The position numbers and the translations under genes were made by a program. Below are positions 35,982-49,513 of a stretch of 64,000 nucleotides of DNA, piece after piece. How positions within the stretch are numbered: position 1 is the stretch's first letter; every line of letters starts with the position of its first letter. The stretch comes from a virus (taxonomy: Duplodnaviria > Caudoviricetes), in the IMG/VR virus record IMGVR_UViG_3300009873_000004, positions 19,827 to 83,826 of that record. One strand, written 5' to 3'. The notes beneath the pieces are model-generated. The model saw nothing but the letters and a program-made list of their open reading frames with translations. It ran no database searches and had not been told where the DNA came from.

Positions 35982-36018
35982 AACGGGCTCCCTAACCGGA
36001 GCCCGTTTTGCATTTAAG
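35982..36018 (+). terminator. Terminator T8 plus junction motif
   Basis: AACGGGCTCC/GGAGCCCGTT then TTGCATTTAAG. Confidence 0.8.
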
Positions 36019-36027
36019 CAACCGACG

Positions 36028-36041
36028 TTCCAAATTTGGAA
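36028..36041. promoter_or_regulatory. Perfect palindrome TTCCAAATTTGGAA abutting an SD
   Basis: Intergenic, between T8 and the next SD. Confidence 0.65.
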
Positions 36042-36051
36042 AGGATAACCC

Positions 36052-36267
36052 ATGCAGAAGAGTCTCTATCTGGCAACTTACTACCAGAAAGACAAGCAGA
36101 CCGGCCAGTTGTATTGGGCCTTGCTGCTGGTGCGCGAGGAGAGCCACTTCCGGGCGGAAGCCCAGGCTAAGGCGCTCACGCCCCAGGATTACACCTACCA
36201 CAACACCGAGCACCTGGACGAGCAGAAGCTCGACAAGAAGGGCTACCTGGAACTGTTCTATTCATAG
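36052..36267 (+). CDS. Hypothetical protein
   Basis: AAGGA SD. Confidence 0.6.
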   Translation: MQKSLYLATYYQKDKQTGQLYWALLLVREESHFRAEAQAKALTPQDYTYHNTEHLDEQKLDKKGYLELFYS

Positions 36268-36275
36268 GAGACTGC

Positions 36276-36497
36276 ATGCCTGTATCCATTGGGCGCAATC
36301 CATTCGCCCGCCATGACCTCGTGCGCGAGATCGTGCGCACCCAGAAGGGCTGCTCCTGGTGCGGTCAGAACTTCCGAGGCCGCCTGTTCGCCTACGGCCA
36401 TCACCCGGACGGGATCTACACCCGCCCCGCCTATCTCAAGGGCGAATTCTGCTCCATCGACTGCTGCCGCTCGTACCACGACGGCCAGCCCCAGTAG
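36276..36497 (+). CDS. Small zinc-binding protein
   Basis: CSWCG...FCSIDC; AGGAG SD. Confidence 0.6.
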   Translation: MPVSIGRNPFARHDLVREIVRTQKGCSWCGQNFRGRLFAYGHHPDGIYTRPAYLKGEFCSIDCCRSYHDGQPQ

Positions 36498-36524
36498 GAA
36501 GACTGACCCTATCCGGGTTAGAAC

Positions 36525-36553
36525 TTGCCTTACACGCCCATTTTGTGTAATCT
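36525..36553 (+). promoter_or_regulatory. Sigma70-type promoter TTGCCT-17-TAATCT
   Basis: Shares GTGTAATCTA with the 21690 promoter. Confidence 0.6.
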
Positions 36554-36574
36554 ATTAGCAAAGGAGACTGTTCC

Positions 36575-36835
36575 ATGCCGATTGACGAATTGATCGAGAA
36601 GCTGAAGGCCCTGCAAAAGCTGTATCCGGAGGCGGAGGTCGAGGTTCGCGCCTATGGTCCCAAGGGTGAAAACCTGGACGGTGATCCGCTCTTCTACGCC
36701 AACGTGCGCCACAATCTGGGCCAGAACATCCTGCTGGTCAGCGATCAAGACACCGAGGGCCAGGCCTGGACCACACACTGGGAAGACTGGATGGCAAGCA
36801 CCTACATCATGCGCTATCGGGAGGTAAAACCTTGA
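36575..36835 (+). CDS. Hypothetical protein
   Basis: AAGGAG SD. Confidence 0.6.
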   Translation: MPIDELIEKLKALQKLYPEAEVEVRAYGPKGENLDGDPLFYANVRHNLGQNILLVSDQDTEGQAWTTHWEDWMASTYIMRYREVKP

Positions 36836-37188
36836 TCTTCATCGAGTACGACCCGCACCTATCTGGTGCCGCCTGGCCGGACGGGCAAGCCCTGGAGCGA
36901 GCCCTTAGTATCGCCGAATGGGCCAAAACGATTGATGCCGACATCCACGAAACCTACTCCACCGAAAACATCTTCTACGCCCTGCGGCTGCTGATCGCCA
37001 ACGGCACCCTGCCGCACGATCGCATCCTGTTCGTCTATCAGGGCCACGCCTTCCAGGCCAACGAGTATGGGGCCATTCGCGACTGGCCGGAAGGTTTTTC
37101 CGACCTGACGACTCGCTTCAGCGAGAACATCATCCGCGCCGCCATGCAGAAACGAAAGGACAAAATCCATGGATCTCAAGCCGGGTGA
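36832..37188 (+). CDS. Hypothetical protein
   Basis: GGAGG SD, TTGA coupling. Confidence 0.6.
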   Translation: MIFIEYDPHLSGAAWPDGQALERALSIAEWAKTIDADIHETYSTENIFYALRLLIANGTLPHDRILFVYQGHAFQANEYGAIRDWPEGFSDLTTRFSENIIRAAMQKRKDKIHGSQAG

Positions 37189-37399
37189 TCGCGTGCGAGC
37201 CTATCTGGACCCGAACAACACCACCCTCGACTACGTCGATGGCACGATCCAGCAAGACAACTCCTTGTTGGTCAGCTACGACAACTGGGCGACCGAGTAC
37301 AAAGATGATCCGATGGTCGCCAATCTGGTCGGCCGCGCTATCCCCTTGAAACCGCATTTCAAAATCGAAAAACTGGAGGACCAGCATGGAAGATCCTGA
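37169..37399 (+). CDS. Hypothetical protein
   Basis: AAGGA SD. Confidence 0.55.
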   Translation: MDLKPGDRVRAYLDPNNTTLDYVDGTIQQDNSLLVSYDNWATEYKDDPMVANLVGRAIPLKPHFKIEKLEDQHGRS

Positions 37400-37985
37400 C
37401 AATTTCGACACCGAAGCATTCCGCGAGAAGTACAAGGCCGGGATTGACTACGGCCTGGGCATGAGCAACATCGACCATGAAAATGGCATCCGCTATGGCG
37501 TGATCAGCCAGCACTCGCTGGCGTCCTGGGTCATGGGCGAAGCCGAGCCGATCTATCCGGACTACGAGGTCGAGGTCGAGTGCGAGCACTGTGAAGAGAC
37601 CTTCATGGTGACAGACTCGCAGACCAACGACAACGTCACCTGTCCGGAGTGTGGTGAGCAGACCTGGGCCGAGGGCAACGACTTCATCGAACTGGAGCCG
37701 GTCGGCTGGGACCTGGGCATCGACGAAGACGGCTATGAGACCGACTGGAGCGAGACGCTCAACGCCCTGTTCGTGCTCAAGAGCCCCTACTACACCGAAT
37801 GCCATTACTGCTCGCCCTGCGCCCCAGGCGCGGGCGATCTGGACAGCCCGATGCCGGGCGGCGTGAAGGCTTACGCCTTTGGCCCGGACTTCTTCGACGA
37901 GGACAGCCCCTGCCCGTACCCGATCTATTCGGTGGAGACGGGCGAACTGGTGCAGAAAGGCCCCGACGATGTGGACGCTGACTGA
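37386..37985 (+). CDS. Highly acidic zinc-ribbon protein
   Basis: GGAGG SD; CEHC, CPEC, CSPCAPG; very D/E-rich. Confidence 0.7.
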   Translation: MEDPDNFDTEAFREKYKAGIDYGLGMSNIDHENGIRYGVISQHSLASWVMGEAEPIYPDYEVEVECEHCEETFMVTDSQTNDNVTCPECGEQTWAEGNDFIELEPVGWDLGIDEDGYETDWSETLNALFVLKSPYYTECHYCSPCAPGAGDLDSPMPGGVKAYAFGPDFFDEDSPCPYPIYSVETGELVQKGPDDVDAD

Positions 37986-38175
37986 AGACCGCCTGCCGGA
38001 AGGCCTGCCTGCCACCTACTTCGTGACCATCAAGAACAACAACGGCCGCCGCCGAGTTGACATCGCTCAGTGGACCGGCGACCACTGGAACTACCGCCTC
38101 GACGACTGGAGCGGTGAGTGGATCCTGGCCTGGCGGCCCATCCCCTATCCCGATCCCTACTGGGGAGAATACTGA
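37969..38175 (+). CDS. Small Trp-rich protein
   Basis: High GC3; ILAWRPIP.PY ending. Confidence 0.55.
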   Translation: MWTLTEDRLPEGLPATYFVTIKNNNGRRRVDIAQWTGDHWNYRLDDWSGEWILAWRPIPYPDPYWGEY

Positions 38176-38441
38176 TGAACCCAACTGACATGCAGGCTGT
38201 CGTTGACCAGATGCGCCAGGTGATGTATGAGCGCCACCTGGACTACATCCAGTTTCGATTGATGGACTGGATCGTGGAACTGGGGCCTGGCTACGGCTTC
38301 GACGAAACCTACTGCGGTGCCAAGGTCTGGTATCGCGAGGCTTATCCGATCAGTTACAAAGAGGCCCTGTCGTACAAGCTCTATCTGTACCTGTGCGGCG
38401 AGGCCGAGTTCCCCGAGTTCGCCTGGGAGCCTACCCCATGA
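38175..38441 (+). CDS. Hypothetical protein
   Basis: TGATG-coupled. Confidence 0.55.
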   Translation: MNPTDMQAVVDQMRQVMYERHLDYIQFRLMDWIVELGPGYGFDETYCGAKVWYREAYPISYKEALSYKLYLYLCGEAEFPEFAWEPTP

Positions 38442-38755
38442 TCGTCATACCCGACACCGTCAACCAGGTTGTTTTTGAGTTCCACTACTTCGGTCGGCGC
38501 AAAGGCACCGGCCGAGGATTCTGGGACGATCCCCAGGAGGTGATTGAGTCCAGCCGCGAGCAACTGGACGCCGAGATCGTGCTCAAGAAAGAGGACTGGC
38601 CCTGGCTGTCCGACTGGAACGACTACGGCAGCACCGTCGAGTTTGCTGTCGTCAGGCGCGACCTGGACCTGGATCTGTACTGGGTCGAGCAGCAGTTGAT
38701 CACCCTGCTGCTGCTGTGCGAATACCAATTGGAGGCACCAAATGCGCCTGCCTAA
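38438..38755 (+). CDS. Hypothetical acidic protein
   Basis: ATGA-coupled. Confidence 0.55.
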   Translation: MIVIPDTVNQVVFEFHYFGRRKGTGRGFWDDPQEVIESSREQLDAEIVLKKEDWPWLSDWNDYGSTVEFAVVRRDLDLDLYWVEQQLITLLLLCEYQLEAPNAPA

Positions 38756-39044
38756 GTCTATTCGCCAGGTTGTGTACTTCCTGCGATACAAGAAAGGCGT
38801 TCCTCTCGACACCGCGATCGTCGTAGCCGAGACCGAGATCGCAGAACTGCCCTATGTGCATGAAGTCGAAGCGGGACCGTTTGATCAGGTCCTGTTCTAT
38901 GCCGTCACCGTCAATCTGGACGATGTGTCCCCGTATTACCGATCCGCCTTGACTGGCAACGTCGATGCCGTGGCGCTGGGGCGTGTCGAAGACAGACTGC
39001 GCGAGATCCTGACCAAGTACGGTTTCACCCTGGAGGCACCCTAA
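38742..39044 (+). CDS. Hypothetical protein
   Basis: GGAGG SD. Confidence 0.6.
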   Translation: MRLPKSIRQVVYFLRYKKGVPLDTAIVVAETEIAELPYVHEVEAGPFDQVLFYAVTVNLDDVSPYYRSALTGNVDAVALGRVEDRLREILTKYGFTLEAP

Positions 39045-39302
39045 ATGTTTCCGAAGACCATGGATAGCGTCAACTTCTATATCACCTGGAAGAACTACCG
39101 CTGGGATAACCGCTACGACGGCATGAAAGTGGTGCAAGAACGCCTGCATCGAATTCCCTGGATCATCAACCACTTCGACCCGATGGGCGCAATGAGGCAC
39201 ATCGTGGTCGTAGTCGCCGTCTCTGAGATGCCCGACCTCTTTGAAGCCGAACGCCAGATCAAGCAGGCGTTTATCGACTCGTCTTTCACCCTGGAGGACT
39301 AA
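39045..39302 (+). CDS. Hypothetical protein
   Basis: GGAGG SD. Confidence 0.6.
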   Translation: MFPKTMDSVNFYITWKNYRWDNRYDGMKVVQERLHRIPWIINHFDPMGAMRHIVVVVAVSEMPDLFEAERQIKQAFIDSSFTLED

Positions 39303-39598
39303 TGCGCCTGAAGCCCAATATCTCGCCCATCATCGACGAAGGCAAACGCAAGCGGGCGATCTACAAGCACCTGAAGCTCCTGCCCGACTCCCTGCGGCCG
39401 TACTTCCAACGGCCGCGTTGGGATTCCGAACTGCACATCCTGCTGGGCGTGAATGGCTACGCCATCCGCTATTTTAGCGACCTGCCCAATGGCGGACCGC
39501 GAACAGAAGCCTATCGGCTGTGGATTGATGACGGCGACCGAGACGTCCACCACATCGTCAAGCACGCAATCGCCGTTTCAGGAAAGGAGCGCCCATGA
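39302..39598 (+). CDS. Hypothetical basic protein
   Basis: TAATG-coupled, GGAGG SD. Confidence 0.6.
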   Translation: MRLKPNISPIIDEGKRKRAIYKHLKLLPDSLRPYFQRPRWDSELHILLGVNGYAIRYFSDLPNGGPRTEAYRLWIDDGDRDVHHIVKHAIAVSGKERP

Positions 39599-39882
39599 AG
39601 AAGGTTGATGGCGATTTTGTCATTTCTGGCCCCTATCGCCACTACTGGACTCCCTGGGGCCATGTTATCGGCTACCACGATGTCGTTTACGTCCAGCACC
39701 AGCCCAGCGGCGCAATCTGCGTCGTGGAGAGCCACCAGAAGGCCAGGGGCGTGGGCAAGCGCCACATCGCCAAGACCACCACCCACGGCTATTACGATCA
39801 CCCGGCACCGCGCTTTTTGTCGCAGCGCCAGGCCATCGAAGCAGCAAAAGCCAATTGCCTGAAGGAGGCCCATGACAACTAG
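39595..39882 (+). CDS. Hypothetical protein
   Basis: AAGGAG SD. Confidence 0.6.
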   Translation: MKKVDGDFVISGPYRHYWTPWGHVIGYHDVVYVQHQPSGAICVVESHQKARGVGKRHIAKTTTHGYYDHPAPRFLSQRQAIEAAKANCLKEAHDN

Positions 39883-40588
39883 CTACCGCGTCCTGGAAGC
39901 CAAGCACCACGCCCCCTACGCGGGGGCCTTCTGGGAATGGAACTACTGGCTGATCAGCTTTGAGAATGACCAGCCCTTCACCATCACCCCGATCTACGTT
40001 TCGGGCAAGGACCGGCTGGAATTCACCCGGCTGAAAGAGATGTGGCAGGCGCACCTGGCCCAGAAAGACGAGGGCTACGTCTATCCGCTCGACCACGCCA
40101 GTTTCTATGACCTGGACGACGACCTGGAAAAGCAGATCCCAACCAACCTGGTCCCCGACTTCTGGAAGTTCTTCAACGAGCCGGGCCACAGCCCAATCTT
40201 CCGCCAGTTCATCTTCCGCTGGACCTGCGAGCATTCCGAGAGCCTGACGTCCAACCCGCCGCACGTCATGTCCGGCTACCGGGGCAACGGCGGCGTCGGC
40301 ATTGAGGTCGATGGTTGGGTGTGCGATGACTGCATGCACGCCTACGCCTACGCCCAGTCGATTGAGTGGTGCGCGGAGGAGTTGCGCTTCCACTTCGACG
40401 AGTGGTTCCCCGATCTCGAACTGGAAGAGCTTGAAACTGTCGCCAAGGAAGTCATCCAGCGCCTGTCGCAGGCCCACGACTGGGAATACATCGACACGGA
40501 TGGTACTGGCCGCTATCCGGCCACCGAGTTGGTCCGGACGGCGCTGTTGGAGTTGGGCTACTGCGAGCCCGAGGAGGCAGTCGAGTGA
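39872..40588 (+). CDS. Hypothetical acidic protein (238 aa)
   Basis: GGAGG SD. Confidence 0.65.
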   Translation: MTTSYRVLEAKHHAPYAGAFWEWNYWLISFENDQPFTITPIYVSGKDRLEFTRLKEMWQAHLAQKDEGYVYPLDHASFYDLDDDLEKQIPTNLVPDFWKFFNEPGHSPIFRQFIFRWTCEHSESLTSNPPHVMSGYRGNGGVGIEVDGWVCDDCMHAYAYAQSIEWCAEELRFHFDEWFPDLELEELETVAKEVIQRLSQAHDWEYIDTDGTGRYPATELVRTALLELGYCEPEEAVE

Positions 40589-40902
40589 GGCAATACAAGT
40601 ACGAGAACTACACCCTGGTCCTGGAGGTGGTCGGCGAGGATGGGCACGGCAAGCCCCGCGTACGCTACCACCTGTTCGACCAGGACGGCACGATCTTCGA
40701 GGGGAATGATTTCTATTCCTGGGACGGATCCGATCCCAAGAGCGCCGAGGGGCTGCTGGGATTCCTGACCCTGCGCCAGGGCGATGTGGAGGAGGACTAT
40801 TTCAAGGACTACACCGAGCGCCAGCTCAAGTTCCGCGACAACGAAGCCGAAGACCTGTATTTCTGGCAGGAAGAACTCAACCCGGAGGCCTACAAGGAAT
40901 GA
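40585..40902 (+). CDS. Hypothetical acidic protein
   Basis: GGAGG SD, GTGA coupling. Confidence 0.65.
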   Translation: MRQYKYENYTLVLEVVGEDGHGKPRVRYHLFDQDGTIFEGNDFYSWDGSDPKSAEGLLGFLTLRQGDVEEDYFKDYTERQLKFRDNEAEDLYFWQEELNPEAYKE

Positions 40903-41393
40903 CCCGCCAGCCTGAATGGGAATTGATCGACAACCTGGGCGACCAGGGCGACCCAATCGCTTATGGCGGCTTTTGGGTTTACCGAGACACGACCGGCGTC
41001 TACGAGGAAGAGGCTGAATACTGGGAGCCCTTGGATGATACCCCCAAAGGATTCGCCTACCGCTTCAGCCTGGAGCGCTGCGGCCTGCACGAAGGCCACC
41101 TGGTCCACAAGCGCATCCTGGACAAGCATCCCGACCTGCCCTATCCGCTCGATCGCTACACCAAGTGGTTTGATGACCACATTGACGCTGTGGCCGACTT
41201 TCAAGGACTCCAGCCGGACGAACTGCGGGCCAGCTTCTGCTCAGAAGATCCGATCGCCCGCGCCTGGGCCTATCGGTCCCTGGGCGAATACTTCGGCTTC
41301 TTCGAACTGGACCAGTACCCGCTCGAACTGACGATCGAAGAGGCTCAGGAGCGCTATGGCGATGAAGATCAACAAGCAGGTTCTGAAGACTGA
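40899..41393 (+). CDS. Hypothetical acidic protein
   Basis: ATGA-coupled. Confidence 0.65.
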   Translation: MTRQPEWELIDNLGDQGDPIAYGGFWVYRDTTGVYEEEAEYWEPLDDTPKGFAYRFSLERCGLHEGHLVHKRILDKHPDLPYPLDRYTKWFDDHIDAVADFQGLQPDELRASFCSEDPIARAWAYRSLGEYFGFFELDQYPLELTIEEAQERYGDEDQQAGSED

Positions 41394-41586
41394 AGTCAGC
41401 TACCTGATCCTGCCCCAGGGCGTGCGCTGCCAGTCGATTGACGAGGTGGTCGAGAAGCGCCGCAAACTGGCGGGCGAGACCTGGGTCCGGGAATACACGC
41501 TCGTCACCAAGGCCATCACCATCGAGCATGGGGGCCGCAAAACCCGCGTCAAAGGGGAGTATCTGACCAGCAAAGGAGTGGAATGA
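41356..41586 (+). CDS. Hypothetical basic protein
   Basis: AGGAG SD. Confidence 0.55.
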   Translation: MAMKINKQVLKTEVSYLILPQGVRCQSIDEVVEKRRKLAGETWVREYTLVTKAITIEHGGRKTRVKGEYLTSKGVE

Positions 41587-41777
41587 AGATCGCAATCACC
41601 GTTCGAGAGTTAGGGGCCATTCTGGCGGGCCTGATCACGCTCCGGCGTCACCTGGAAGGCAAGTTGCTCGATACCGGCGACTACGAAGCCGTGCGCGACC
41701 TGCTATCCGACCTGGGCAACTTCGAAGCCCTGTCCCTCGCCGAGATCGACGACCTGTTCGAAAGGCTGAACGCATGA
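41583..41777 (+). CDS. Hypothetical protein
   Basis: ATGA-coupled. Confidence 0.55.
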   Translation: MKIAITVRELGAILAGLITLRRHLEGKLLDTGDYEAVRDLLSDLGNFEALSLAEIDDLFERLNA

Positions 41778-42124
41778 GCGACGTTCATCTGCTGCACTAC
41801 GAATGGGAAACGGCCTACGGCTGGCTGCGCGGCAAGTACAGCCTGCCCGATCAGATCTGGAGCCTGCTTTCAACCCTGGACAGCGACACGATCCAGGACC
41901 AGTTCCAGGACGAGATGGATGCCGACCGCTACTTCGACCTGCTCTTTGACGTCCCCTGCAACGCTTGCGGCAGGCGAGTCTATTCCGATCCCAATGGCAC
42001 GGACGACCTTGATGGGCAGGAATGCCGCCGCTGCCGCGCCGTCTACCACAACACTTGCGGCTTCACCGAAGAGGTCAGCCTGGAAGAGCACATCTGCGAC
42101 GAATGCCAACGGGAGGACTTGTAA
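41774..42124 (+). CDS. Acidic protein with PHD-like (C4HC3) zinc finger
   Basis: CNAC-x15-CRRC-x3-YH-x2-C-x12-CDEC. Confidence 0.6.
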   Translation: MSDVHLLHYEWETAYGWLRGKYSLPDQIWSLLSTLDSDTIQDQFQDEMDADRYFDLLFDVPCNACGRRVYSDPNGTDDLDGQECRRCRAVYHNTCGFTEEVSLEEHICDECQREDL

Positions 42125-42376
42125 ATGGTCATTCTTCTGGAGTACGACAACGGTTGGACGCATGACGACCATCGCCGCTATCCGCTGGGAATCTTCACCG
42201 ACGAGGACCAGGCTCGCCAGGCGGCCGTGTTCTACCTGGTAAGCATGCAGGCCGATTGGGGCTGGCACAGTGACCACCACTGCCGCCTGGGTTGGTACAC
42301 CCCCAACTGGGAGTACGGCGAAGCCGGTCCCGGCCGAGTCGTCACTATCCGCGTTCCACCCAAGGAGACCGAATGA
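42125..42376 (+). CDS. Hypothetical protein
   Basis: GGAGG SD. Confidence 0.55.
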   Translation: MVILLEYDNGWTHDDHRRYPLGIFTDEDQARQAAVFYLVSMQADWGWHSDHHCRLGWYTPNWEYGEAGPGRVVTIRVPPKETE

Positions 42377-42858
42377 GCACCCTGCAAGGCGACATTGAAG
42401 ACTGTATCCGCGAACTGCGCGAGCGCATTGAAGAGAACCCGGACGAGAGGGAGCCGCACGATTGGATCCACGAGATCGCTGACTCGAACGTTCCAATCTA
42501 CTATTCCGACATCCTCCAGTATGCCGCCGATGACATCGACCTGGCAACGGCCGAGCCCGAGATTGGCCCGGCCTTTGACGGCTCGCCCACGCCGATCAAC
42601 GTCATCGCCGCCAACATTTTCGACCGGCTGGAAGAGGCCCTCTGGGAAGAGTGGCGCAGGTTTGAAGACCAGCGCGACGAAGCGCCCGAATGCGCCATCT
42701 GCTACGAGAAGGTCTTCGAGTGGCAGGACTCGATCGTCTGCACCGTTGCCGACTGCGAGGAGGTCATTCACCAGGACTGTGACACCCCCAAAACACCCGA
42801 CCCCTATTTCTGCGACACCCACCTGCCCGAGGAACCCGATGACGACGAAACTGACTAA
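42373..42858 (+). CDS. Ocr (T7 gp0.3)-like DNA-mimic anti-restriction protein with C-terminal PHD-like zinc finger
   Basis: HDWIHEIADSNVPIYYSDI matches T7 Ocr HDAIHMAADNAVPHYYADI; about 47 D/E of 161 aa; AAGGAG SD. Confidence 0.8.
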   Translation: MSTLQGDIEDCIRELRERIEENPDEREPHDWIHEIADSNVPIYYSDILQYAADDIDLATAEPEIGPAFDGSPTPINVIAANIFDRLEEALWEEWRRFEDQRDEAPECAICYEKVFEWQDSIVCTVADCEEVIHQDCDTPKTPDPYFCDTHLPEEPDDDETD

Positions 42859-43105
42859 AGACACCGCCCACGCCTCGATCGACCGCAACTTCGCCCGCGT
42901 CCAGGTCGGCGACCTGGTGCTGTGGTTCTCCTACCAGACCCTGATCGGCTTCTGGGACACCGAGAAGGTCGCCATCCAGAACTACTGGAACAAGACGACC
43001 GGCAAGCACCTGAACACCTTCAGCGACAAGGCCGACCGGGTCAACCGGGAGACCTTCGACGCCAAGTGGGCCGAAGTGCTCAAGAAACACAAGCTGGTGG
43101 GCTGA
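42839..43105 (+). CDS. Hypothetical protein
   Basis: GAGG SD; FSY.TLI.F and TTGKHLN motifs seen in phage early proteins. Confidence 0.6.
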   Translation: MTTKLTKDTAHASIDRNFARVQVGDLVLWFSYQTLIGFWDTEKVAIQNYWNKTTGKHLNTFSDKADRVNRETFDAKWAEVLKKHKLVG

Positions 43106-43106
43106 A

Positions 43107-43433
43107 ATGGAAGATTGGGTGAGAGATCGCGTTGAAAAGGCCCTGAAGACAGGCGTTACCGGCCCCAACCGGATGAAGCCGCCCGAAGAACTGGAGGCGA
43201 TCCGACCGCACATTCAGGGCTGGAAGACCTACGTCCTGCGCGTCCCCGATGAGGACAGTAACGGAGAATTGTCGGACTATGTCGACATCCAGGCCGTGGA
43301 TGAAGACACCGCCATCCGCTACTTTCACGCAGGTTTTTTCCTGACCGACGCTCCTTACGAGATTGTGCGCCGCGAGGTGAACGAGACCATCATCGACGCC
43401 AGCGGCCCCATGAAACCCGGATTGGACCCATAG
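43107..43433 (+). CDS. Hypothetical protein
   Basis: Tightly packed co-oriented ORF. Confidence 0.55.
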   Translation: MEDWVRDRVEKALKTGVTGPNRMKPPEELEAIRPHIQGWKTYVLRVPDEDSNGELSDYVDIQAVDEDTAIRYFHAGFFLTDAPYEIVRREVNETIIDASGPMKPGLDP

Positions 43434-43441
43434 GAGACCTT

Positions 43442-44197
43442 ATGACCCACAACCGCTATGAAGAGATCCTGCCCAAGCTGAGAGGCCGCCAGGGCATGGC
43501 CCCCAGCCGCAAGCTGGAGAACAACACCTACGCCATTCAGGGCGAGGACGAGATCGAAGTGCGCCTGCACGGCCACACCATCCTGGTGCTCTATCCGGAC
43601 AGCTCCGTGAAATACGATAGCTGTGGCTGGAAGACCGTCACCACTAAGGCCCGGCTCAACCGCTACGGCCAACCAGGCGTCGTCATCTCCCAGAAGGGCG
43701 GCCAATGGTTCATCGGCAAGGGTGGCTACCGGAACGAAGCCGACTGGATCCCCTTTGAAGACGGCATGACGATTGGGCCAGGCGGCCAGTTGCCCCTTCC
43801 CAGCCAACCGGCCGTCGACGCGAAGACCCTGCGCAAGCAGGTGAAGAAATACGTCAAAGCCTTCATGGTGGCCCTGACCACCGGCCAGGTGAACGTCCCC
43901 GGCCCCGGCGACTGCTTTTACTGCGCCATGGTCACAGAAGACGGCCAGACGCTGGGCGAAGCCAGCCACGGTTCCGACCACCTCCAGAGTCACATCGAGC
44001 AGGACTACTTCGTGCCTTCGCTCCTGGTGCGCGCCCTGGAGGTCATGCCAACCTCAATTGCCGCCAGGCACAACGTCTGGGCTTACATGCAGCAGGCCGA
44101 CGCGGACCAGTTCTATCCGGCTGCGGACTTCCTCGACAAGCAGATCGAGAAGGCCCTCTGCCGCTACGTGCTGCGGCAATTGGGACAGGCGGCCTAA
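43442..44197 (+). CDS. Hypothetical protein (GW.T.TTK.RLN motif)
   Basis: AGGAG SD; high GC3. Confidence 0.7.
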   Translation: MTHNRYEEILPKLRGRQGMAPSRKLENNTYAIQGEDEIEVRLHGHTILVLYPDSSVKYDSCGWKTVTTKARLNRYGQPGVVISQKGGQWFIGKGGYRNEADWIPFEDGMTIGPGGQLPLPSQPAVDAKTLRKQVKKYVKAFMVALTTGQVNVPGPGDCFYCAMVTEDGQTLGEASHGSDHLQSHIEQDYFVPSLLVRALEVMPTSIAARHNVWAYMQQADADQFYPAADFLDKQIEKALCRYVLRQLGQAA

Positions 44198-44199
44198 GA

Positions 44200-44439
44200 A
44201 TGGACGATCTGGACTTCCAGGAAAATCTCCTGACCATCAACTTTCCGAGCCTGTATCGGATTAGGATCGAGCGCCGAAGCGGAGATACATCCTGGGTCAT
44301 GGCCTATGATCATCGGGGCACGGCGTTCAACTTCAAGACCTGGCGCTTTGATAACGATCACGCCGGGTTTGCTATCCCGATCACGGCGACTCAATTCGCC
44401 AGCCTGGTCTACCTTTGCAACCGGCCTGCGAATGGCTGA
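44200..44439 (+). CDS. Hypothetical protein
   Basis: Tightly packed co-oriented ORF. Confidence 0.5.
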   Translation: MDDLDFQENLLTINFPSLYRIRIERRSGDTSWVMAYDHRGTAFNFKTWRFDNDHAGFAIPITATQFASLVYLCNRPANG

Positions 44440-44538
44440 CCCTGCACCGGAACCCGCGCTGTCTAGAGTAGCGCCTGGAAACAACACGAGCAAGATCCAA
44501 ACACCGAGGACTTGAAAGGAGCTATCGGAAAACCCGAA

Positions 44539-44856
44539 ATGAATACCGACACCCTCCGCACCGTCAACCAGATCCTGGAGCAGGGCTACTACGAAGACCA
44601 CACCGGCCTGGGGGAAGGCGGCTGGGAGCACCTGTACTTCTACATCCGCGACTGGGGGCGCTACATCCTGCGAGCCACCCCTCTGGAAGAACCGTCCGAG
44701 CCCTTCACTCACAAGATCACCGCCCGGACGGAAGCTGAAGCCATCGCCGCTTTCCACAAGCTCTACCGGCTGGACAAGTGCATCTACGAGATCGTGCGCG
44801 TCTACCGGCACGAGGTCATCATCGAAGACAACATTCACGAAAAGGAGAACCAGTGA
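44539..44856 (+). CDS. Hypothetical protein
   Basis: High GC3; start uncertain. Confidence 0.55.
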   Translation: MNTDTLRTVNQILEQGYYEDHTGLGEGGWEHLYFYIRDWGRYILRATPLEEPSEPFTHKITARTEAEAIAAFHKLYRLDKCIYEIVRVYRHEVIIEDNIHEKENQ

Positions 44857-45158
44857 TCGTCGGTCTGAACCTTCAGAAGAACACCTGCCTCATCCAGCGA
44901 GCCGATGACGTCAAGATCTATCGCGAGAGCCTGCTCTGGCACCGGATAAAGCGCGTGCTTCAGCGCCAGGGCTATGACGTGGTCAAGAAGCTCATGTGGA
45001 AGGACGGCTACCTGGTCAGCGATGACCAGTATTACATCCGCCAGCGCAAGTGGGAGTGGGCCATCACCGACTCGCACTATGCCATCCGCTCGCTGTGCGT
45101 CGCGTACAACGCGGGCGAGCCGATCGTCCTGACTGTCCACCAAGGAGAAAACTGGTGA
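44853..45158 (+). CDS. Hypothetical protein
   Basis: AAGGAG SD before GTG. Confidence 0.6.
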   Translation: MIVGLNLQKNTCLIQRADDVKIYRESLLWHRIKRVLQRQGYDVVKKLMWKDGYLVSDDQYYIRQRKWEWAITDSHYAIRSLCVAYNAGEPIVLTVHQGENW

Positions 45159-45406
45159 GCGATAACGCTGTTCGCGCTTTCCTGGTCTTCGCCCCCATGA
45201 CGCGGGGCGGCCACGTCGCCCACGTCCATCGCGTGGGCTGCGCCGATACCCGCAAGGCGCTCTACCAGCACGAAGAGCGCCACATCATCGAGACCGACGA
45301 GGGGCCGGTGGACGCGGCCTTTGCGATCGTCGACCCCGAACTGGGCTACCAGCCCGAGGACTTCAAGATCTTCCCCTGCTGCTATCCGAACTCGGAAGGC
45401 AACTAG
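45155..45406 (+). CDS. Hypothetical protein
   Basis: AAGGAG SD before GTG. Confidence 0.6.
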   Translation: MSDNAVRAFLVFAPMTRGGHVAHVHRVGCADTRKALYQHEERHIIETDEGPVDAAFAIVDPELGYQPEDFKIFPCCYPNSEGN

Positions 45407-45462
45407 CATTACGTCAACCTGTACCTATTTTGCATTCCCAGTTTTTTCTGAAAGGAGAACCC

Positions 45463-45723
45463 ATGAAGGTTTTGCAAATCGAGCACCGGCACGGCACGAA
45501 CTTCTACATCTGCGAGAGCGACGAGGTGGTGCAGATCGTCCTGCGCCACTATGTCGCCGACTGGTGGAAAATGGAAATGGGTGAGCCCCTGCCCAAGCCC
45601 ATGACCGGAGCGGACATCGAGCGCTACTTCGAGATGGCGAACGAGTCCTGGACGGTCTCCGACTACTCGGAACCGATCACCCTGGAACATGCCCGCACGT
45701 TCTATCCGAAAGGTGTGCAATGA
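45463..45723 (+). CDS. Hypothetical protein
   Basis: AAGGAG SD. Confidence 0.6.
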   Translation: MKVLQIEHRHGTNFYICESDEVVQIVLRHYVADWWKMEMGEPLPKPMTGADIERYFEMANESWTVSDYSEPITLEHARTFYPKGVQ

Positions 45724-46046
45724 GCGACCGAGTTTTCGCCCGCTATACGTTCAAGTTCGTGGTCCTGGTCGAGGGGGAGATCCCCGACGACATGAGCCTG
45801 GGCGACATTTACCGGGAAAGCGTGGAAGGCAGCTACTCCGGCCACTGGGAAACCGATAGCCTGGAGTATCTGACGCCTGCGGAGATGGCCGAGGCCCTGA
45901 TTGGGCAGGGCTCCGATCCGGAGTTCTTTCGACTGAACGAGAAAGGTGACGATCTGGAAGACGACGACTACGACCCGCACGAAGAGCCCTATCAGGGCAT
46001 GCAACTGGACGAGAATGGAGACTCTTTCTGGGAAGGCAAACTATGA
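45720..46046 (+). CDS. Very acidic small protein
   Basis: ATGA-coupled; D/E-rich. Confidence 0.6.
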   Translation: MSDRVFARYTFKFVVLVEGEIPDDMSLGDIYRESVEGSYSGHWETDSLEYLTPAEMAEALIGQGSDPEFFRLNEKGDDLEDDDYDPHEEPYQGMQLDENGDSFWEGKL

Positions 46047-46103
46047 AGACTGACCGGATGGTGATCATCGAGGTTCTGGGCGGCATGGCCGACGACCTGC
46101 AAG

Positions 46104-46117
46104 TTCCAAATTTGGAG
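46104..46117. promoter_or_regulatory. Palindromic site TTCCAAATTTGGAG overlapping an SD
   Basis: Right arm overlaps the GGAGG of the 46126 gene. Confidence 0.6.
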
Positions 46118-46125
46118 GACTGACC

Positions 46126-46377
46126 ATGCCGCTCTACACCCTTACCTACGCCAGGGTGGTCATTCTCAAGACCACTCTCTGGGCTGCCAACCAGGCTGCC
46201 GCTACCGACCTGGCCTTCGAGCTAGAACTGACCCAGGAACTGGGCCTGGAAGACTGGACTCCCAAGAAGGGATCCGAAGTGGATGACGTCCAGGATTACG
46301 ACCAGATCTGGGAGGTCGAATACCAGGATCCGGGCGATCCCGCAGACGCTGACTTCGCCTACGAGGCTGAAGCATGA
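46126..46377 (+). CDS. Very acidic small protein
   Basis: GGAGG SD. Confidence 0.6.
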   Translation: MPLYTLTYARVVILKTTLWAANQAAATDLAFELELTQELGLEDWTPKKGSEVDDVQDYDQIWEVEYQDPGDPADADFAYEAEA

Positions 46378-46541
46378 AGCGCCTGCTGTTGATCGCCCTG
46401 TTCCTGCTGCTGACCACCGGCCCGGCCGTGGCCGGGGAGACCCACACCATCTATCTGCCCCTGACGGGCTATTACTGCCCACCGCCTTACGTCTGGACCC
46501 CGGAAGGCTGTGTCGATATTGGCAAGCCGCCTGTTCCCTGA
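46374..46541 (+). CDS. 55-aa secreted peptide with signal peptide and IYLPL motif
   Basis: MKRLLLIALFLLLTTGPAVA|GETHTIYLPLTGYYCPPPYVWTPEGCVDIGKPPVP; ATGA-coupled; below ORF-track cutoff. Confidence 0.6.
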   Translation: MKRLLLIALFLLLTTGPAVAGETHTIYLPLTGYYCPPPYVWTPEGCVDIGKPPVP

Positions 46542-46551
46542 AAGGAGACCC

Positions 46552-47427
46552 ATGAACGACACCTACACCTACGATCCCGATCCGAAGGACCCCGACTCCA
46601 AACTGATCGACCTGGAGATCTTCTACTCGGACGCCGATGAGAGCACCATCCAGGTCCACAAGCTGCCGGACGGCCGCTATCTGGTCGGCTACCTGGCTCG
46701 CGATGATGACTGCTCCGACCCGACCGAGGACAACGGCACGGGCTACATCTGCGCCCATGACAACCATCGCTCGGCTGACTACTGGGCTGCTCGCGGCCAG
46801 ACTCGGTATGGGGAACTGCTGGTCGGTGAAGATGACCTCTTGGAAGAGGTAGCCCGAGAGGTCGATAAGCCGCTCGACGACCTGCTGCGCGAGACCTATC
46901 TGTACAAGCGCGAACAGTCCTGGCAAGAGGCAGACGCAGAACTAAAGCGGATCTACTCCCGCGCCAACCTGAAGCTCCCCTATCGAGGGATCTACGACCG
47001 ACTCCTGGAAGAGCACCGCCAGGCAGGCGATCTGGGCGATCCGGATGCCGTGCTTCTCAGCTACTACGAGCACGGCGGGAGAGCCTACTCCCTGCTGTAC
47101 GAAAACCGCTTCCCTGACCAACAGTGGGACGTGACCAACGGCGGGGCGGTTTGGATTCCCGACGATCACTTGCGCAATGTCAAAGCTAAGGGCCTGACCG
47201 GCAAGAAGCGCCGCGCCAAGATGGAGCAGTGGGCCAGGGAATGTGTCGACACCTACAACGACTGGCTTTCGGGGGACTGCTGGGGCGTGGTGGTGCAGAC
47301 CAACGACGAAGACGGCAACATGATCGACGACGACGCCTGCTGGGGCTACATCGGCTCCAAGTGGGCTAAGGAAGAACTGGCAAGCAGTATCAAGTGGGCT
47401 TTGGAACACCAAAAGGAAACTGCATGA
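46552..47427 (+). CDS. Hypothetical acidic protein (YNDWLSGDCWG...DDACWGYIG motif)
   Basis: AAGGAG SD. Confidence 0.7.
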   Translation: MNDTYTYDPDPKDPDSKLIDLEIFYSDADESTIQVHKLPDGRYLVGYLARDDDCSDPTEDNGTGYICAHDNHRSADYWAARGQTRYGELLVGEDDLLEEVAREVDKPLDDLLRETYLYKREQSWQEADAELKRIYSRANLKLPYRGIYDRLLEEHRQAGDLGDPDAVLLSYYEHGGRAYSLLYENRFPDQQWDVTNGGAVWIPDDHLRNVKAKGLTGKKRRAKMEQWARECVDTYNDWLSGDCWGVVVQTNDEDGNMIDDDACWGYIGSKWAKEELASSIKWALEHQKETA

Positions 47428-47633
47428 AGCAACCCAAATGGTACGTCAAGATCACAAACGAAGATGGAATCGTGATTGCCGAAGCAATCAGGCATACGTC
47501 TCGAACTGCCACAACGGCCCTGTTCGACGTCATGGCCGAGATGGGGGTTGGACCACATGATGTTTTTGAAATCCTGGTCCAACCTGCCTTGCCTGAGTAC
47601 CTTATTGCAAAAATGATGAGAGGGAAGGCATGA
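47424..47633 (+). CDS. Hypothetical protein
   Basis: AAGGA SD. Confidence 0.5.
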   Translation: MKQPKWYVKITNEDGIVIAEAIRHTSRTATTALFDVMAEMGVGPHDVFEILVQPALPEYLIAKMMRGKA

Positions 47634-47884
47634 GTATCTACAACCGCTGGGGTGATGAGATCGAGATCGTCGCCCACCTGGGCGTGCATACCATCCAGGA
47701 ATTTCCCCATCCGCAAGAACTGCTCCTGGTCCGGATCAAGCCCGACAACTTGATGGCGACCTACTGGCTGTTCACCCTGCGAGCCGACGATGGCCTGAAA
47801 GAGATTGCCACCGCCATCCAGAACATTCCCATCTGGGACCTATCCAGCCGCCTACTGCAAGGCGCTATCCTGGCAGCCCAATGA
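47630..47884 (+). CDS. Hypothetical protein
   Basis: ATGA-coupled. Confidence 0.6.
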   Translation: MSIYNRWGDEIEIVAHLGVHTIQEFPHPQELLLVRIKPDNLMATYWLFTLRADDGLKEIATAIQNIPIWDLSSRLLQGAILAAQ

Positions 47885-48159
47885 CCGGCCTGTTCAAGCG
47901 CAAGTACGGCGATAAGCTGAAGGGCCGGGTCGACTGGATCAAGGTCCTGGACCCGGAGGATCAGCAGGTCCTGATCCGGTTGGGATTACAGGCCGCCGAC
48001 TACGGCAGGCGCGGCGGCAAGGTCCGCGCAGAGTGTGCAAAGCGTGACAGGCGAGGCCGCTTCGCCCCTGGAAAAGAAGCCCCGCCAGCGGCTCAGAGTT
48101 ATGTCGAGCCGCCTGTATCCGCCGAGCAGGATTTTTTCGAGCAAGAGCTACCGTTCTAA
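47881..48159 (+). CDS. Hypothetical basic protein
   Basis: ATGA-coupled; GRRGG and RDRRGRF motifs. Confidence 0.55.
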   Translation: MTGLFKRKYGDKLKGRVDWIKVLDPEDQQVLIRLGLQAADYGRRGGKVRAECAKRDRRGRFAPGKEAPPAAQSYVEPPVSAEQDFFEQELPF

Positions 48160-48171
48160 GAAAGGACACCC

Positions 48172-48531
48172 ATGCCCATCGCTCTTGAAGGCACCATGAT
48201 GCACGTTACGCCCAGCGGCCAGGTGATGGCCGAGTGGGTAAACATCGGCGAAGGCTGGTCAGGCGAGTGGGATCCAGACGATCCCGAGGACCAGAACCTG
48301 CTGCGCTTCGACCTGCACGTCCGCGCCCAGGGCGCAACCCAGGACCCGGACGAATGGTGGGAAGACGTCGACGATGCCAGCTACTGTACCCGCATGCCTG
48401 CTGACGCCGACGACGACCTTCTGCACCAGGCCCTGGCCTACATCGCTCGCGAGTTCGAGTGGGCCTATCCGACTCACCACAAGCGCCGCCTGGAAGAGCT
48501 TTCCTGGATCGGCCCGGAGGACTTTGCATGA
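48172..48531 (+). CDS. Hypothetical acidic protein
   Basis: AAGGA SD. Confidence 0.65.
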   Translation: MPIALEGTMMHVTPSGQVMAEWVNIGEGWSGEWDPDDPEDQNLLRFDLHVRAQGATQDPDEWWEDVDDASYCTRMPADADDDLLHQALAYIAREFEWAYPTHHKRRLEELSWIGPEDFA

Positions 48532-48986
48532 AGACCGTTGACGAGCTAACCGACGTGCGCCTGCTGTCCTACGCCTGCCATTTTCTGGCGGCCAATCTGG
48601 ACGAAGACAATCTGAGCAATCTGCTGCGCCTGGGAGATGACGACGCAACTCCCGAATCCCTCTACGACTCCCTGGAGCATCGCCTGGATGACCTGGGTGA
48701 TCGCTTCCGCGACCCGGTCGATGACTCGGGCGAGTGCCATGAGTGTGGCTGTGACTATCAGTGGCAGGGCCTGAGCAACGAGACCTGCCCCAATCCGGAA
48801 TGCCCGTCCAATCTGAATGGTCCCGAGCAAGTGGTGGTGATCGCCAAGAAAGACCTGGTTGACCTTCTCACCCTGCTGTGGGCCGAACTGGACGCTGACG
48901 AAGACAGCCGCCACCTGTTCTGGACTCGCGATCAACTTGATCGCATGATCGCCCTGGGCGAGCACCTGAAGACCTACGCTTTCTGA
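48528..48986 (+). CDS. Acidic zinc-ribbon protein
   Basis: CHECG...CPNPEC; GGAGG SD. Confidence 0.6.
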   Translation: MKTVDELTDVRLLSYACHFLAANLDEDNLSNLLRLGDDDATPESLYDSLEHRLDDLGDRFRDPVDDSGECHECGCDYQWQGLSNETCPNPECPSNLNGPEQVVVIAKKDLVDLLTLLWAELDADEDSRHLFWTRDQLDRMIALGEHLKTYAF

Positions 48987-48998
48987 GAAAGGACCCAC

Positions 48999-49277
48999 AT
49001 GCTTGCAAAACCCGACTACTTCAAGACCACCCTGATCGACGGCGACGGCAACCTCCAGCCGATCGAGATCCGCTTCTATGGCAATGGCATCGGCCTGTAC
49101 ATCTACGGCATGGGGACATCCGATTCGGTAGAAGGCGAAGCGGTCTACCTGGACTGGAACGAGGGCAAGCTGCAACTGGTGCTCAACCTCGACGTCAACT
49201 CGGACGAGCAGACCCTGATCAGCCTGGAAGGCGCTCGCACTTCCCAGTACCAGGGCGAGGAGCAGGGCGATGCTTGA
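48999..49277 (+). CDS. Hypothetical acidic protein
   Basis: AAGGA SD. Confidence 0.6.
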   Translation: MLAKPDYFKTTLIDGDGNLQPIEIRFYGNGIGLYIYGMGTSDSVEGEAVYLDWNEGKLQLVLNLDVNSDEQTLISLEGARTSQYQGEEQGDA

Positions 49278-49476
49278 CCAGATCGCTAAAGCTATGCGCA
49301 CCATCTCCCAGATGGCCGACCACTATGAAGAACTGCTGAGCAAGTTGGACGACCAGTATCACCTGCTGGCCTACGACGACGACACCCCGATCGAAGACCT
49401 GCAAGCCAACATCGACGATTGCCGGGCCACTCTGGCCCAGATCCTGGTCGAGGCGAACTGGCCGGGTTACGGCTAA
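49270..49476 (+). CDS. Hypothetical acidic protein
   Basis: GAGGAG SD. Confidence 0.55.
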   Translation: MLDQIAKAMRTISQMADHYEELLSKLDDQYHLLAYDDDTPIEDLQANIDDCRATLAQILVEANWPGYG

Positions 49477-49483
49477 CTCTCTC

Positions 49484-49513
49484 TTGACCCATCGTATCCG
49501 TTTGTACTAGAAT
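49484..49513 (+). promoter_or_regulatory. Sigma70-type promoter TTGACC-18-TAGAAT
   Basis: Intergenic; 8 nt upstream of ATG 49522. Confidence 0.6.

Follow-up and report, generated by a model that had tools for sequence, protein, structure and literature searches.

Results

An Ocr-finger gene in an uncultured phage. The gene at 42373-42858 encodes an acidic protein of 161 amino acids (pI about 4), in which an Ocr-type DNA-mimic domain is followed by a predicted zinc finger and a short acidic tail (Table 1). The reading frame is free of stops and is preceded by a Shine-Dalgarno sequence, and an ATGA at 42373-42376 makes its start codon overlap the stop codon of the upstream gene. GC content at codon positions 1, 2, and 3 is 0.64, 0.37, and 0.78, as expected of a coding frame in DNA with 61.5% GC. 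The protein has 47 acidic (D+E) and 10 basic (K+R) residues, exactly the count given in a preliminary description of this DNA, and the acidic excess runs through both halves (27 acidic versus 7 basic in residues 1 to 100; 20 versus 3 in residues 101 to 161). Two other readings of the locus were rejected. An antisense ORF (42232-42888; 218 aa) is a by-product of the high GC content, with both homologues and codon-position GC favoring the plus frame, and an upstream TTG start at 42292 was dropped in favor of the ATG with its Shine-Dalgarno sequence and ATGA coupling. We conclude that 42373-42858 is a real gene on the plus strand.

Table 1. Features at and around the Ocr-finger gene (positions in the window)
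Feature	Position	Strand	Remarks
Terminase-like protein, 950 aa	21719-24571	-	intein and LAGLIDADG homing endonuclease domain (Pfam PF14890, PF14528)
Strong terminator	35982-36007		upstream limit of the co-directional block
Acidic Cys-containing protein, 199 aa	37386-37985	+	46 acidic / 7 basic residues, 8 Cys
Second PHD-like finger protein, 116 aa	41774-42124	+	26 acidic / 9 basic residues; canonical C4HC3 signature
Shine-Dalgarno sequence AGGAG	42363-42367	+	five bases 5' of the ATG
Ocr-finger gene, 161 aa plus stop	42373-42858	+	stop-free ORF
Ocr-type DNA-mimic domain	42373-42681	+	residues 1-103; helices 4-21, 29-39, 44-53, 56-59, 74-103
Binuclear PHD/Prok-RING-like finger, predicted zinc-binding	42682-42822	+	residues 104-150; conserved ligands, AF2 and ESM models, profile matches
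Acidic C-terminal tail	42823-42855	+	residues 151-161; follows the finger in most relatives too; T7 Ocr has a comparable acidic tail (PMC3439906)
Downstream gene, 88 aa	42839-43105	+	start overlaps the end of the Ocr-finger gene by 20 bases; PHROG 5643
Kyano_Gp96 domain protein, 251 aa	43442-44197	+	PF23790, scoring 31 bits (cut-off, 27)
Terminator and promoter-like pair	49459-49513		downstream limit of the co-directional block

The gene lies in an uncultured phage genome of ~84 kb, twice the size of that of T7. The IMG/VR virus record comprises 83,826 bp with a direct terminal repeat of 144 bp; the window, by which we mean the whole stretch of 64,000 nucleotides analyzed here, is bases 19827-83826 of that record. 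Among public sequencing runs, the stretch was present in one only, an activated sludge metagenome, which is probably the source sample; no RNA run was listed as containing it. A portal candidate was without match among 50,697 isolated phages, and the nearest isolates to the intein-bearing terminase were large Bacillus phages, at 26% identity. The preliminary description had placed the gene far from T7-like phages, and genome size, terminal repeat, portal, and terminase all bear this out as a matter of description. Ocr-like genes beyond the T7-like phages are nevertheless not new, having been annotated already in actinobacteriophages (Rhodococcus and Streptomyces siphophages). A search for T7-type RNA polymerase (PF00940) in the genome and in the records of five relatives gave no match, and is uninformative since the positive control was equally silent. 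A tRNA scan of the window found none.

The N-terminal domain is homologous to T7 Ocr. Ocr is a textbook DNA mimic that blocks type I restriction and BREX and triggers PARIS. We compared the 161-aa protein with Ocr by sequence and by predicted structure. The Pfam Ocr family (PF08684) matched with 27.8 bits against a curated cut-off of 25 (E value, 3.7e-6), with residues 19 to 93 falling on positions 23 to 95 of the 101-position profile, and PHROG 2568 ("ocr-like anti-restriction") matched at 2.7e-8. HMMER against PDB recovered T7 Ocr chains with E values of 6e-6 to 1e-5 (query residues 18 to 96 on Ocr residues 24 to 100), improving to 8e-8 with a profile built from five fusion relatives. Identity to T7 Ocr is 25 to 30%. 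The preliminary description had aligned three stretches of the protein with T7 gp0.3 and suggested a search with the Ocr family HMM; all three stretches recur in the HMMER alignment to T7 Ocr from PDB, and the family search is the one that exceeds the Pfam cut-off. A tblastn search with the protein against isolated phages and plasmids gave no match, perhaps owing to the low-complexity filter and the acidic composition of the protein.

The AlphaFold (AF2) model of the domain has a pLDDT of 90 to 98 over most of residues 1 to 100, dropping to 69 to 78 in the loop at residues 61 to 70. With this model as the query, Foldseek ranks 1 to 8 were all T7 Ocr chains. VIA-align superposed the model on 1s7z with a Z score of 11.4 (rmsd, 3.0 Å; 103 of 106 residues aligned), compared with 7.1 to 7.3 for the next unrelated chain, and the model reproduces the four-helix arrangement and long last helix of 1s7z. 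The very acidic surface expected of Ocr is also present, given the residue counts for positions 1 to 100. Because PF08684, PHROG 2568, the PDB match, Foldseek, and VIA-align agree, we conclude from sequence comparison and predicted models that homology to Ocr and the Ocr fold are established.

In its homologous helical domain, extreme acidity, acidic C-terminal tail, and small size, the protein resembles T7 gp0.3 Ocr (PF08684; PDB 1s7z and 2y7c), which has 34 acidic and 6 basic residues per 116 aa; like T7 Ocr, it sits among small phage genes of early or host-takeover look. It differs from T7 Ocr in belonging to an unrelated phage of 84 kb and 61.5% GC and in having a predicted two-zinc finger of 47 residues inserted where the last helix gives way to the acidic tail. 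The Ocr-like proteins of PHROG 2568 from Rhodococcus and Streptomyces siphophages are members of the same family outside T7-like phages, but most relatives of this type lack the eight-ligand finger, which was present in just 7 of 283 proteins retrieved. ArdA and other DNA-mimic anti-restriction proteins share with it the presumed acidic, DNA-imitating surface that blocks type I enzymes, but their folds are unrelated, and searches of Pfam and PDB with this protein gave no match to them.

A large clade with a conserved loop. An exhaustive search of 1.84 billion cluster representatives found 423 relatives at an E value of ≤1e-3, 192 of them at ≤1e-10, and a profile search found 411. Most matches from word-indexed searches carried a precomputed PF08684 annotation. 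The clade is thus large; it is almost wholly metagenomic and consists mostly of plain proteins of 100 to 120 aa. Its hallmark is a nearly invariant segment, EPEIGPAFDGSPTP-x-N-IIAAN, which is the most conserved part of the clade and in the HMMER alignment falls on T7 residues E59-D73 or thereabouts, a loop and the start of a helix. In T7 Ocr, this part is indispensable for blocking EcoKI, as mutagenesis showed (PMC3439906). Compared with T7 Ocr, the loop matching residues 59 to 73 is three residues longer here and gives rise to the clade motif EPEIGPAFDGSPTP. Of the six acidic residues in the T7 loop (E59, D62, E64, E66, D67, and D73), three are matched directly, by D53, D56, and E61; E63 and D69 are adjacent to two others, and two positions are Ala, so that three to five of the six have a counterpart.

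A scan of 185,579 species genomes found the clade motif in one contig only, and for this reason the clade seems to live in lytic phages. That contig (L015; JBOGXS010000050.1; 40.8 kb) belongs to a Thermoleophilaceae MAG, bears the motifs PE[IL]GPAFDG and TP[IV]N[IV][IV]AAN, and may be of phage origin, binned together with the MAG. As a clue to actinobacterial hosts it is weak and does not suffice to identify one.

A conserved eight-ligand finger behind the last Ocr helix. Residues 104 to 150 contain the ligand pattern C107-x2-C110-x12-C123-x4-C128-x4-H133-x2-C136-x10-C147-x2-H150. The segment is itself strongly acidic (14 acidic and 2 basic in residues 104 to 156). A six-frame search of the whole 83.8-kb genome with the signature gave two matches only, both within real genes: this one and one in the 116-aa gene upstream. 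Together with the conservation of the ligands in relatives, this shows the pattern to be more than chance. A word-indexed search with the tail alone recovered only the protein itself; relatives with the same fusion required exhaustive HMMER and profile searches to surface. A scan of IMG/VR with the fusion profile gave distant plain Ocr-like proteins only. In all, we found six further proteins with the same Ocr-finger architecture, making seven with the window's own protein (P0001, the reference for the identities that follow): P0186 (162 aa; 58% identity), P0041 (161 aa; 46%), P0048 (166 aa; 44%), P0046 (153 aa; 42%), P0188 (146 aa; 38%), and P0163 (168 aa; 37%). Hence, the fusion is rare but not unique.

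All seven fusions keep C107, C110, C123, C128, C136, and C147. At position 133, five of them have His and the other two Cys; at position 150, His occurs in three and Cys in four, and the fingers of P0048 and P0163 are C4HC3. The residues between the ligands vary across the seven proteins. Conserved ligands with variable intervening residues are the pattern expected of metal ligands under selection.

The finger resembles PHD fingers in predicted structure. We modeled the tail with and without its relatives in the alignment. Once the fusion homologues were included, the AF2 pLDDT of the tail rose from about 50 to 85 to 96, and pTM rose from 0.67 to 0.82. Below the Ocr chains, the Foldseek matches were mostly PHD fingers, with Pygopus at a probability of 0.97 to 1.0 (rmsd, 1.9 Å; 33 columns; 36% identity). 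The wide VIA-align search was filled by the helical Ocr domain and so did not probe the tail; with residues 103 to 153, VIA-align superpositions on the PHD fingers of BRPF1, Pygopus, JADE1, BAZ2A, TAF3, and Alfin gave Z scores of 4.0 to 4.9 (rmsd, 2.1 to 3.4 Å), with 44 to 50 residues aligned out of PHD domains of 50 to 60 residues. An independent ESM Atlas model gave TM scores of 0.55 to 0.63 to the PHD_NSD, PHD_Pygo, and PHD clusters, and of 0.51 to 0.54 to hypothetical proteins of 71 to 77 aa from tailed phages and to bacterial Prok-RING_1 proteins. In these predicted models of the query, the tail has the PHD fold.

Sequence profiles place the finger less narrowly. The fusion profile matched several types of finger in PDB, namely, the RNF4 RING (1.4e-4), the RCHY1 RING (1.1e-3), the rabphilin FYVE domain (3.8e-3), and the BPTF PHD finger (0.033). 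Since the profile matches the RNF4 RING at 1.4e-4, the finger likely belongs to the wider RING/PHD/FYVE superfamily. None of the Pfam zinc-finger families reached its cut-off with P0001 (PHD [PF00628], 11.5 bits against 24; zf-RING_2 [PF13639], 14.2 against 27.3). Among the relatives, PHD scored 15.2 bits with P0186, 15.0 with P0048, and 23.4 with P0041 (cut-off, 24); P0041 also scored 25.4 bits with C1_1 (cut-off, 26.5), and P0048 scored 14.8 bits with Prok-RING_1 (PF14446; cut-off, 29.1). The C4HC3 consensus of PHD fingers is C-x2-C, 9 to 21 residues, C-x2-4-C, 4 to 5 residues, H-x2-C, 12 to 46 residues, C-x2-C. Ligand order and most spacings in P0001 fit this consensus; its last ligand is His, and the last loop, at 7 to 10 residues, is shorter than in the consensus. 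Membership in the RING or Prok-RING_1 families was rejected, as scores fell under the cut-offs and as a Cys fourth ligand followed by a His fifth ligand is not the RING order (C3HC4 or C3H2C3).

The finger resembles PHD fingers (PF00628; Pygopus, BAZ2A, and ING) and Prok-RING_1 in a largely C4HC3-like ligand order and spacing and in a cross-brace-like model with Z scores of 4 to 4.9. Unlike them, it scores under the curated cut-offs, is strongly acidic, has His as the last ligand in three members, and has no chromatin or ubiquitin context. Small stand-alone look-alikes of the finger exist in phages and bacteria. On the predicted models, we place it among the binuclear treble-clef fingers of the PHD/RING/C1 superfamily, with PHD as the nearest modeled shape; to call it a member of the PHD family would overstate the case. 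Because no Pfam zinc-finger cut-off was reached, we use the name PHD/Prok-RING-like. The term "PHD-like finger" in the preliminary description therefore holds for the conserved eight-ligand finger and for the models resembling PHD, but the sequence stays under the Pfam PHD cut-off.

Zinc tails recur across the clade. We sorted the 283 retrieved proteins by what follows the Ocr domain. Plain Ocr-like proteins numbered 206; 34 had two CxxC pairs (ribbon-like), 7 had the eight-ligand finger, and 36 had other long tails. A Cys-rich tail at the same position was therefore found in 41 of 283 proteins (about 14%), in at least three kinds. The automatic tally had placed P0145 in the eight-ligand class; we counted it as ribbon-like, as it has DnaJ-like CxxCxGxG repeats. 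P0145, P0118, and P0196 all have DnaJ-type CxxCxGxG repeats in the tail, which makes a third type of zinc module at this C-terminal site. All these tail modules begin directly behind the last Ocr helix. Because the architectures differ (eight-ligand finger, four-Cys ribbons with varied spacing, and DnaJ-like repeats), the sequences suggest that zinc tails were gained several times independently. The tree built from 280 sequences of this short domain was poorly resolved, with support for 19 of its 277 branches, too few to count the gains.

A second finger protein is conserved nearby. The 116-aa PHD-like protein is encoded 250 bp upstream of the Ocr-finger gene, two genes away from it. Its finger aligned with that of the fusion, ligand by ligand, in an hhalign comparison (probability, 78%; E value, 1.9e-5). 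This relationship emerged from profile-profile comparison alone: a BLASTP search with the tail of the fusion against the 116-aa protein gave nothing. We found no sequence match for the 116-aa protein in Pfam, PHROG, or PDB, and its profile was also without match in PDB.

The contig that encodes P0186 (L004; 33.6 kb) has about ten genes in common with the phage studied here, at 32 to 57% identity, and by this sequence comparison is a distant relative of it. Within 3 kb, this contig carries the Ocr fusion, a free-standing PHD-like protein, and a Kyano_Gp96-like gene. The free-standing protein (L004:10947-11327) is a homologue of the 116-aa protein with 38% identity; the ligands are kept, and the Trp/Tyr-rich N-terminal half is conserved. 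As both finger genes lie close together in both phages, the two finger proteins travel together. The Kyano_Gp96 domain protein downstream of the fusion in the window has its counterpart in L004 at 37% identity.

The Ocr-finger gene belongs to a co-directional block of ~13.5 kb (about 36.0 to 49.5 kb) that runs from a strong terminator to a terminator and promoter-like pair (Table 1); we saw no strong internal terminator within 35982-49513. In ten genes of the plus-strand arm, most of them in this block of small genes, acidic residues outnumber basic ones by at least 0.12 per residue. The block fits a host-takeover or anti-defense operon. One of its products, the 199-aa protein, has weak zinc-ribbon matches at residues 59 to 95, all under the cut-off, and may be a second mimic-like acidic protein equipped with a zinc module.

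Proposed role of the fusion. An Ocr homodimer mimics about 24 bp of bent DNA. By homology, we infer that the N-terminal domain would dimerize, imitate bent DNA, and block the DNA groove of type I restriction-modification and BREX methyltransferases. The finger, predicted to bind two zinc ions, would follow the long last helix and precede the acidic C-terminal tail. In T7 Ocr, each C terminus is found at an outer tip of the dimer, the place at which flanking DNA would exit the enzyme, so that each tip of the dimer would bear one finger. T7 Ocr remains active without residues 99 to 116 (PMC3439906). A finger at the tip, on an end that tolerates change, is unlikely to serve dimerization, and the preliminary description's idea of the finger as a dimerization mode loses ground accordingly. 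A homodimer model with four zinc ions scored 0.35 against a mark of 0.42 and gave no verdict.

We consider it probable, with moderate confidence, that the protein is a DNA mimic of the Ocr family whose finger acts as a rigid acidic accessory, either capping or extending the mimic or making an extra contact with the target; the role of the finger is the weakest step in this proposal. As a rigid acidic module, the finger could lengthen, cap, or stabilize the mimic, or add a contact with the target enzyme. We favor the acidic cap because both the finger and the tail that follows it are acidic and because structurally different zinc modules share that place. At least three kinds of zinc module at one position would fit a generic structural role; they would fit different tails for different partners equally well.

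The finger may instead confer a second target, with the Ocr domain blocking defense enzymes while the finger reads a short, probably basic, peptide of another host or defense protein, thereby tethering the mimic or inhibiting a second system. We judge this unlikely, with several observations in its favor: the best structural matches of the finger are PHD fingers that read histone tails (Pygo, BAZ2A, ING, and TAF3), an acidic finger would suit a basic ligand, and a free-standing PHD-like protein is encoded two genes away and conserved in L004. The aromatic residue that PHD fingers have two positions before the seventh ligand is found in P0001, P0186, and P0041, but it is missing from the other four of the seven fusions, and simpler four-Cys ribbons at the same position in many relatives argue against PHD-type reading across the clade. 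A more specific form, in our estimate somewhat less probable again, is that the finger is a true peptide reader that docks the mimic on a basic tail or loop of a host protein, such as a defense subunit or a histone-like nucleoid protein, with the 116-aa neighbor using the reader alone. If this were so, phage counter-defense would have its first functional PHD-type reader module.

The Ocr fold could also be directed at something other than restriction, with RNA polymerase or a nucleoid protein as the target and the finger aiding the binding of a host-takeover factor. T7 Ocr also binds bacterial RNA polymerase (PDB 6r9b is among the structure matches), identity to T7 Ocr is just 25 to 30%, and the critical acidic loop is partly different. 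However, the family model and the PHROG are both anti-restriction families, and the loop that inhibits EcoKI is the best-conserved part of the clade, which makes a target of this kind improbable. Still less credit goes to evasion, in which tip domains hide the mimic from sensing systems such as PARIS (AriA) while inhibition of restriction is retained. PARIS is triggered when AriA binds T7 Ocr, so that such sensing would select on the shape of the mimic, and varied bulky tails do recur at the exposed tips; this evidence is purely circumstantial, however, and 86% of clade members are without any such tail. Finally, a chance or unstructured Cys/His tail that binds no metal would explain why no Pfam zinc-finger cut-off was reached and why the first model, built without the fusion homologues, had a pLDDT near 50 there, but it is highly implausible given that seven divergent proteins keep the eight Cys/His positions amid variable intervening residues, that two independent predictors give a PHD-like fold, and that the profile matches RING, FYVE, and PHD chains at E values of 1e-4 to 3e-2.

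Novelty and further fusion forms. Homology to Ocr is in itself ordinary; what seems new is that a conserved PHD-like finger is joined to it and that zinc tails occur more widely among Ocr-like mimics. In the limited library of papers on Ocr, BREX, PARIS, and anti-defense that we searched, we found no mention of a zinc-finger fusion or of zinc tails on Ocr. The conserved finger at the presumed dimer tip, together with a zinc module in roughly one in seven clade members, suggests that phages extend DNA mimics in a modular fashion. Comparison of proteins with and without the tail could show how mimics gain affinity, acquire new targets, or escape mimic-sensing defenses. Few PHD/RING-like fingers are on record outside eukaryotes, and the fusions add some from phages.

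Two clade members have other arrangements. P0092 (904 aa) has an intein with an HNH endonuclease behind its Ocr-like domain, and in P0056 (492 aa), the Ocr domain lies at the C terminus behind an unassigned N-terminal part. These two proteins are either further fusion forms of the family or gene-calling artifacts.
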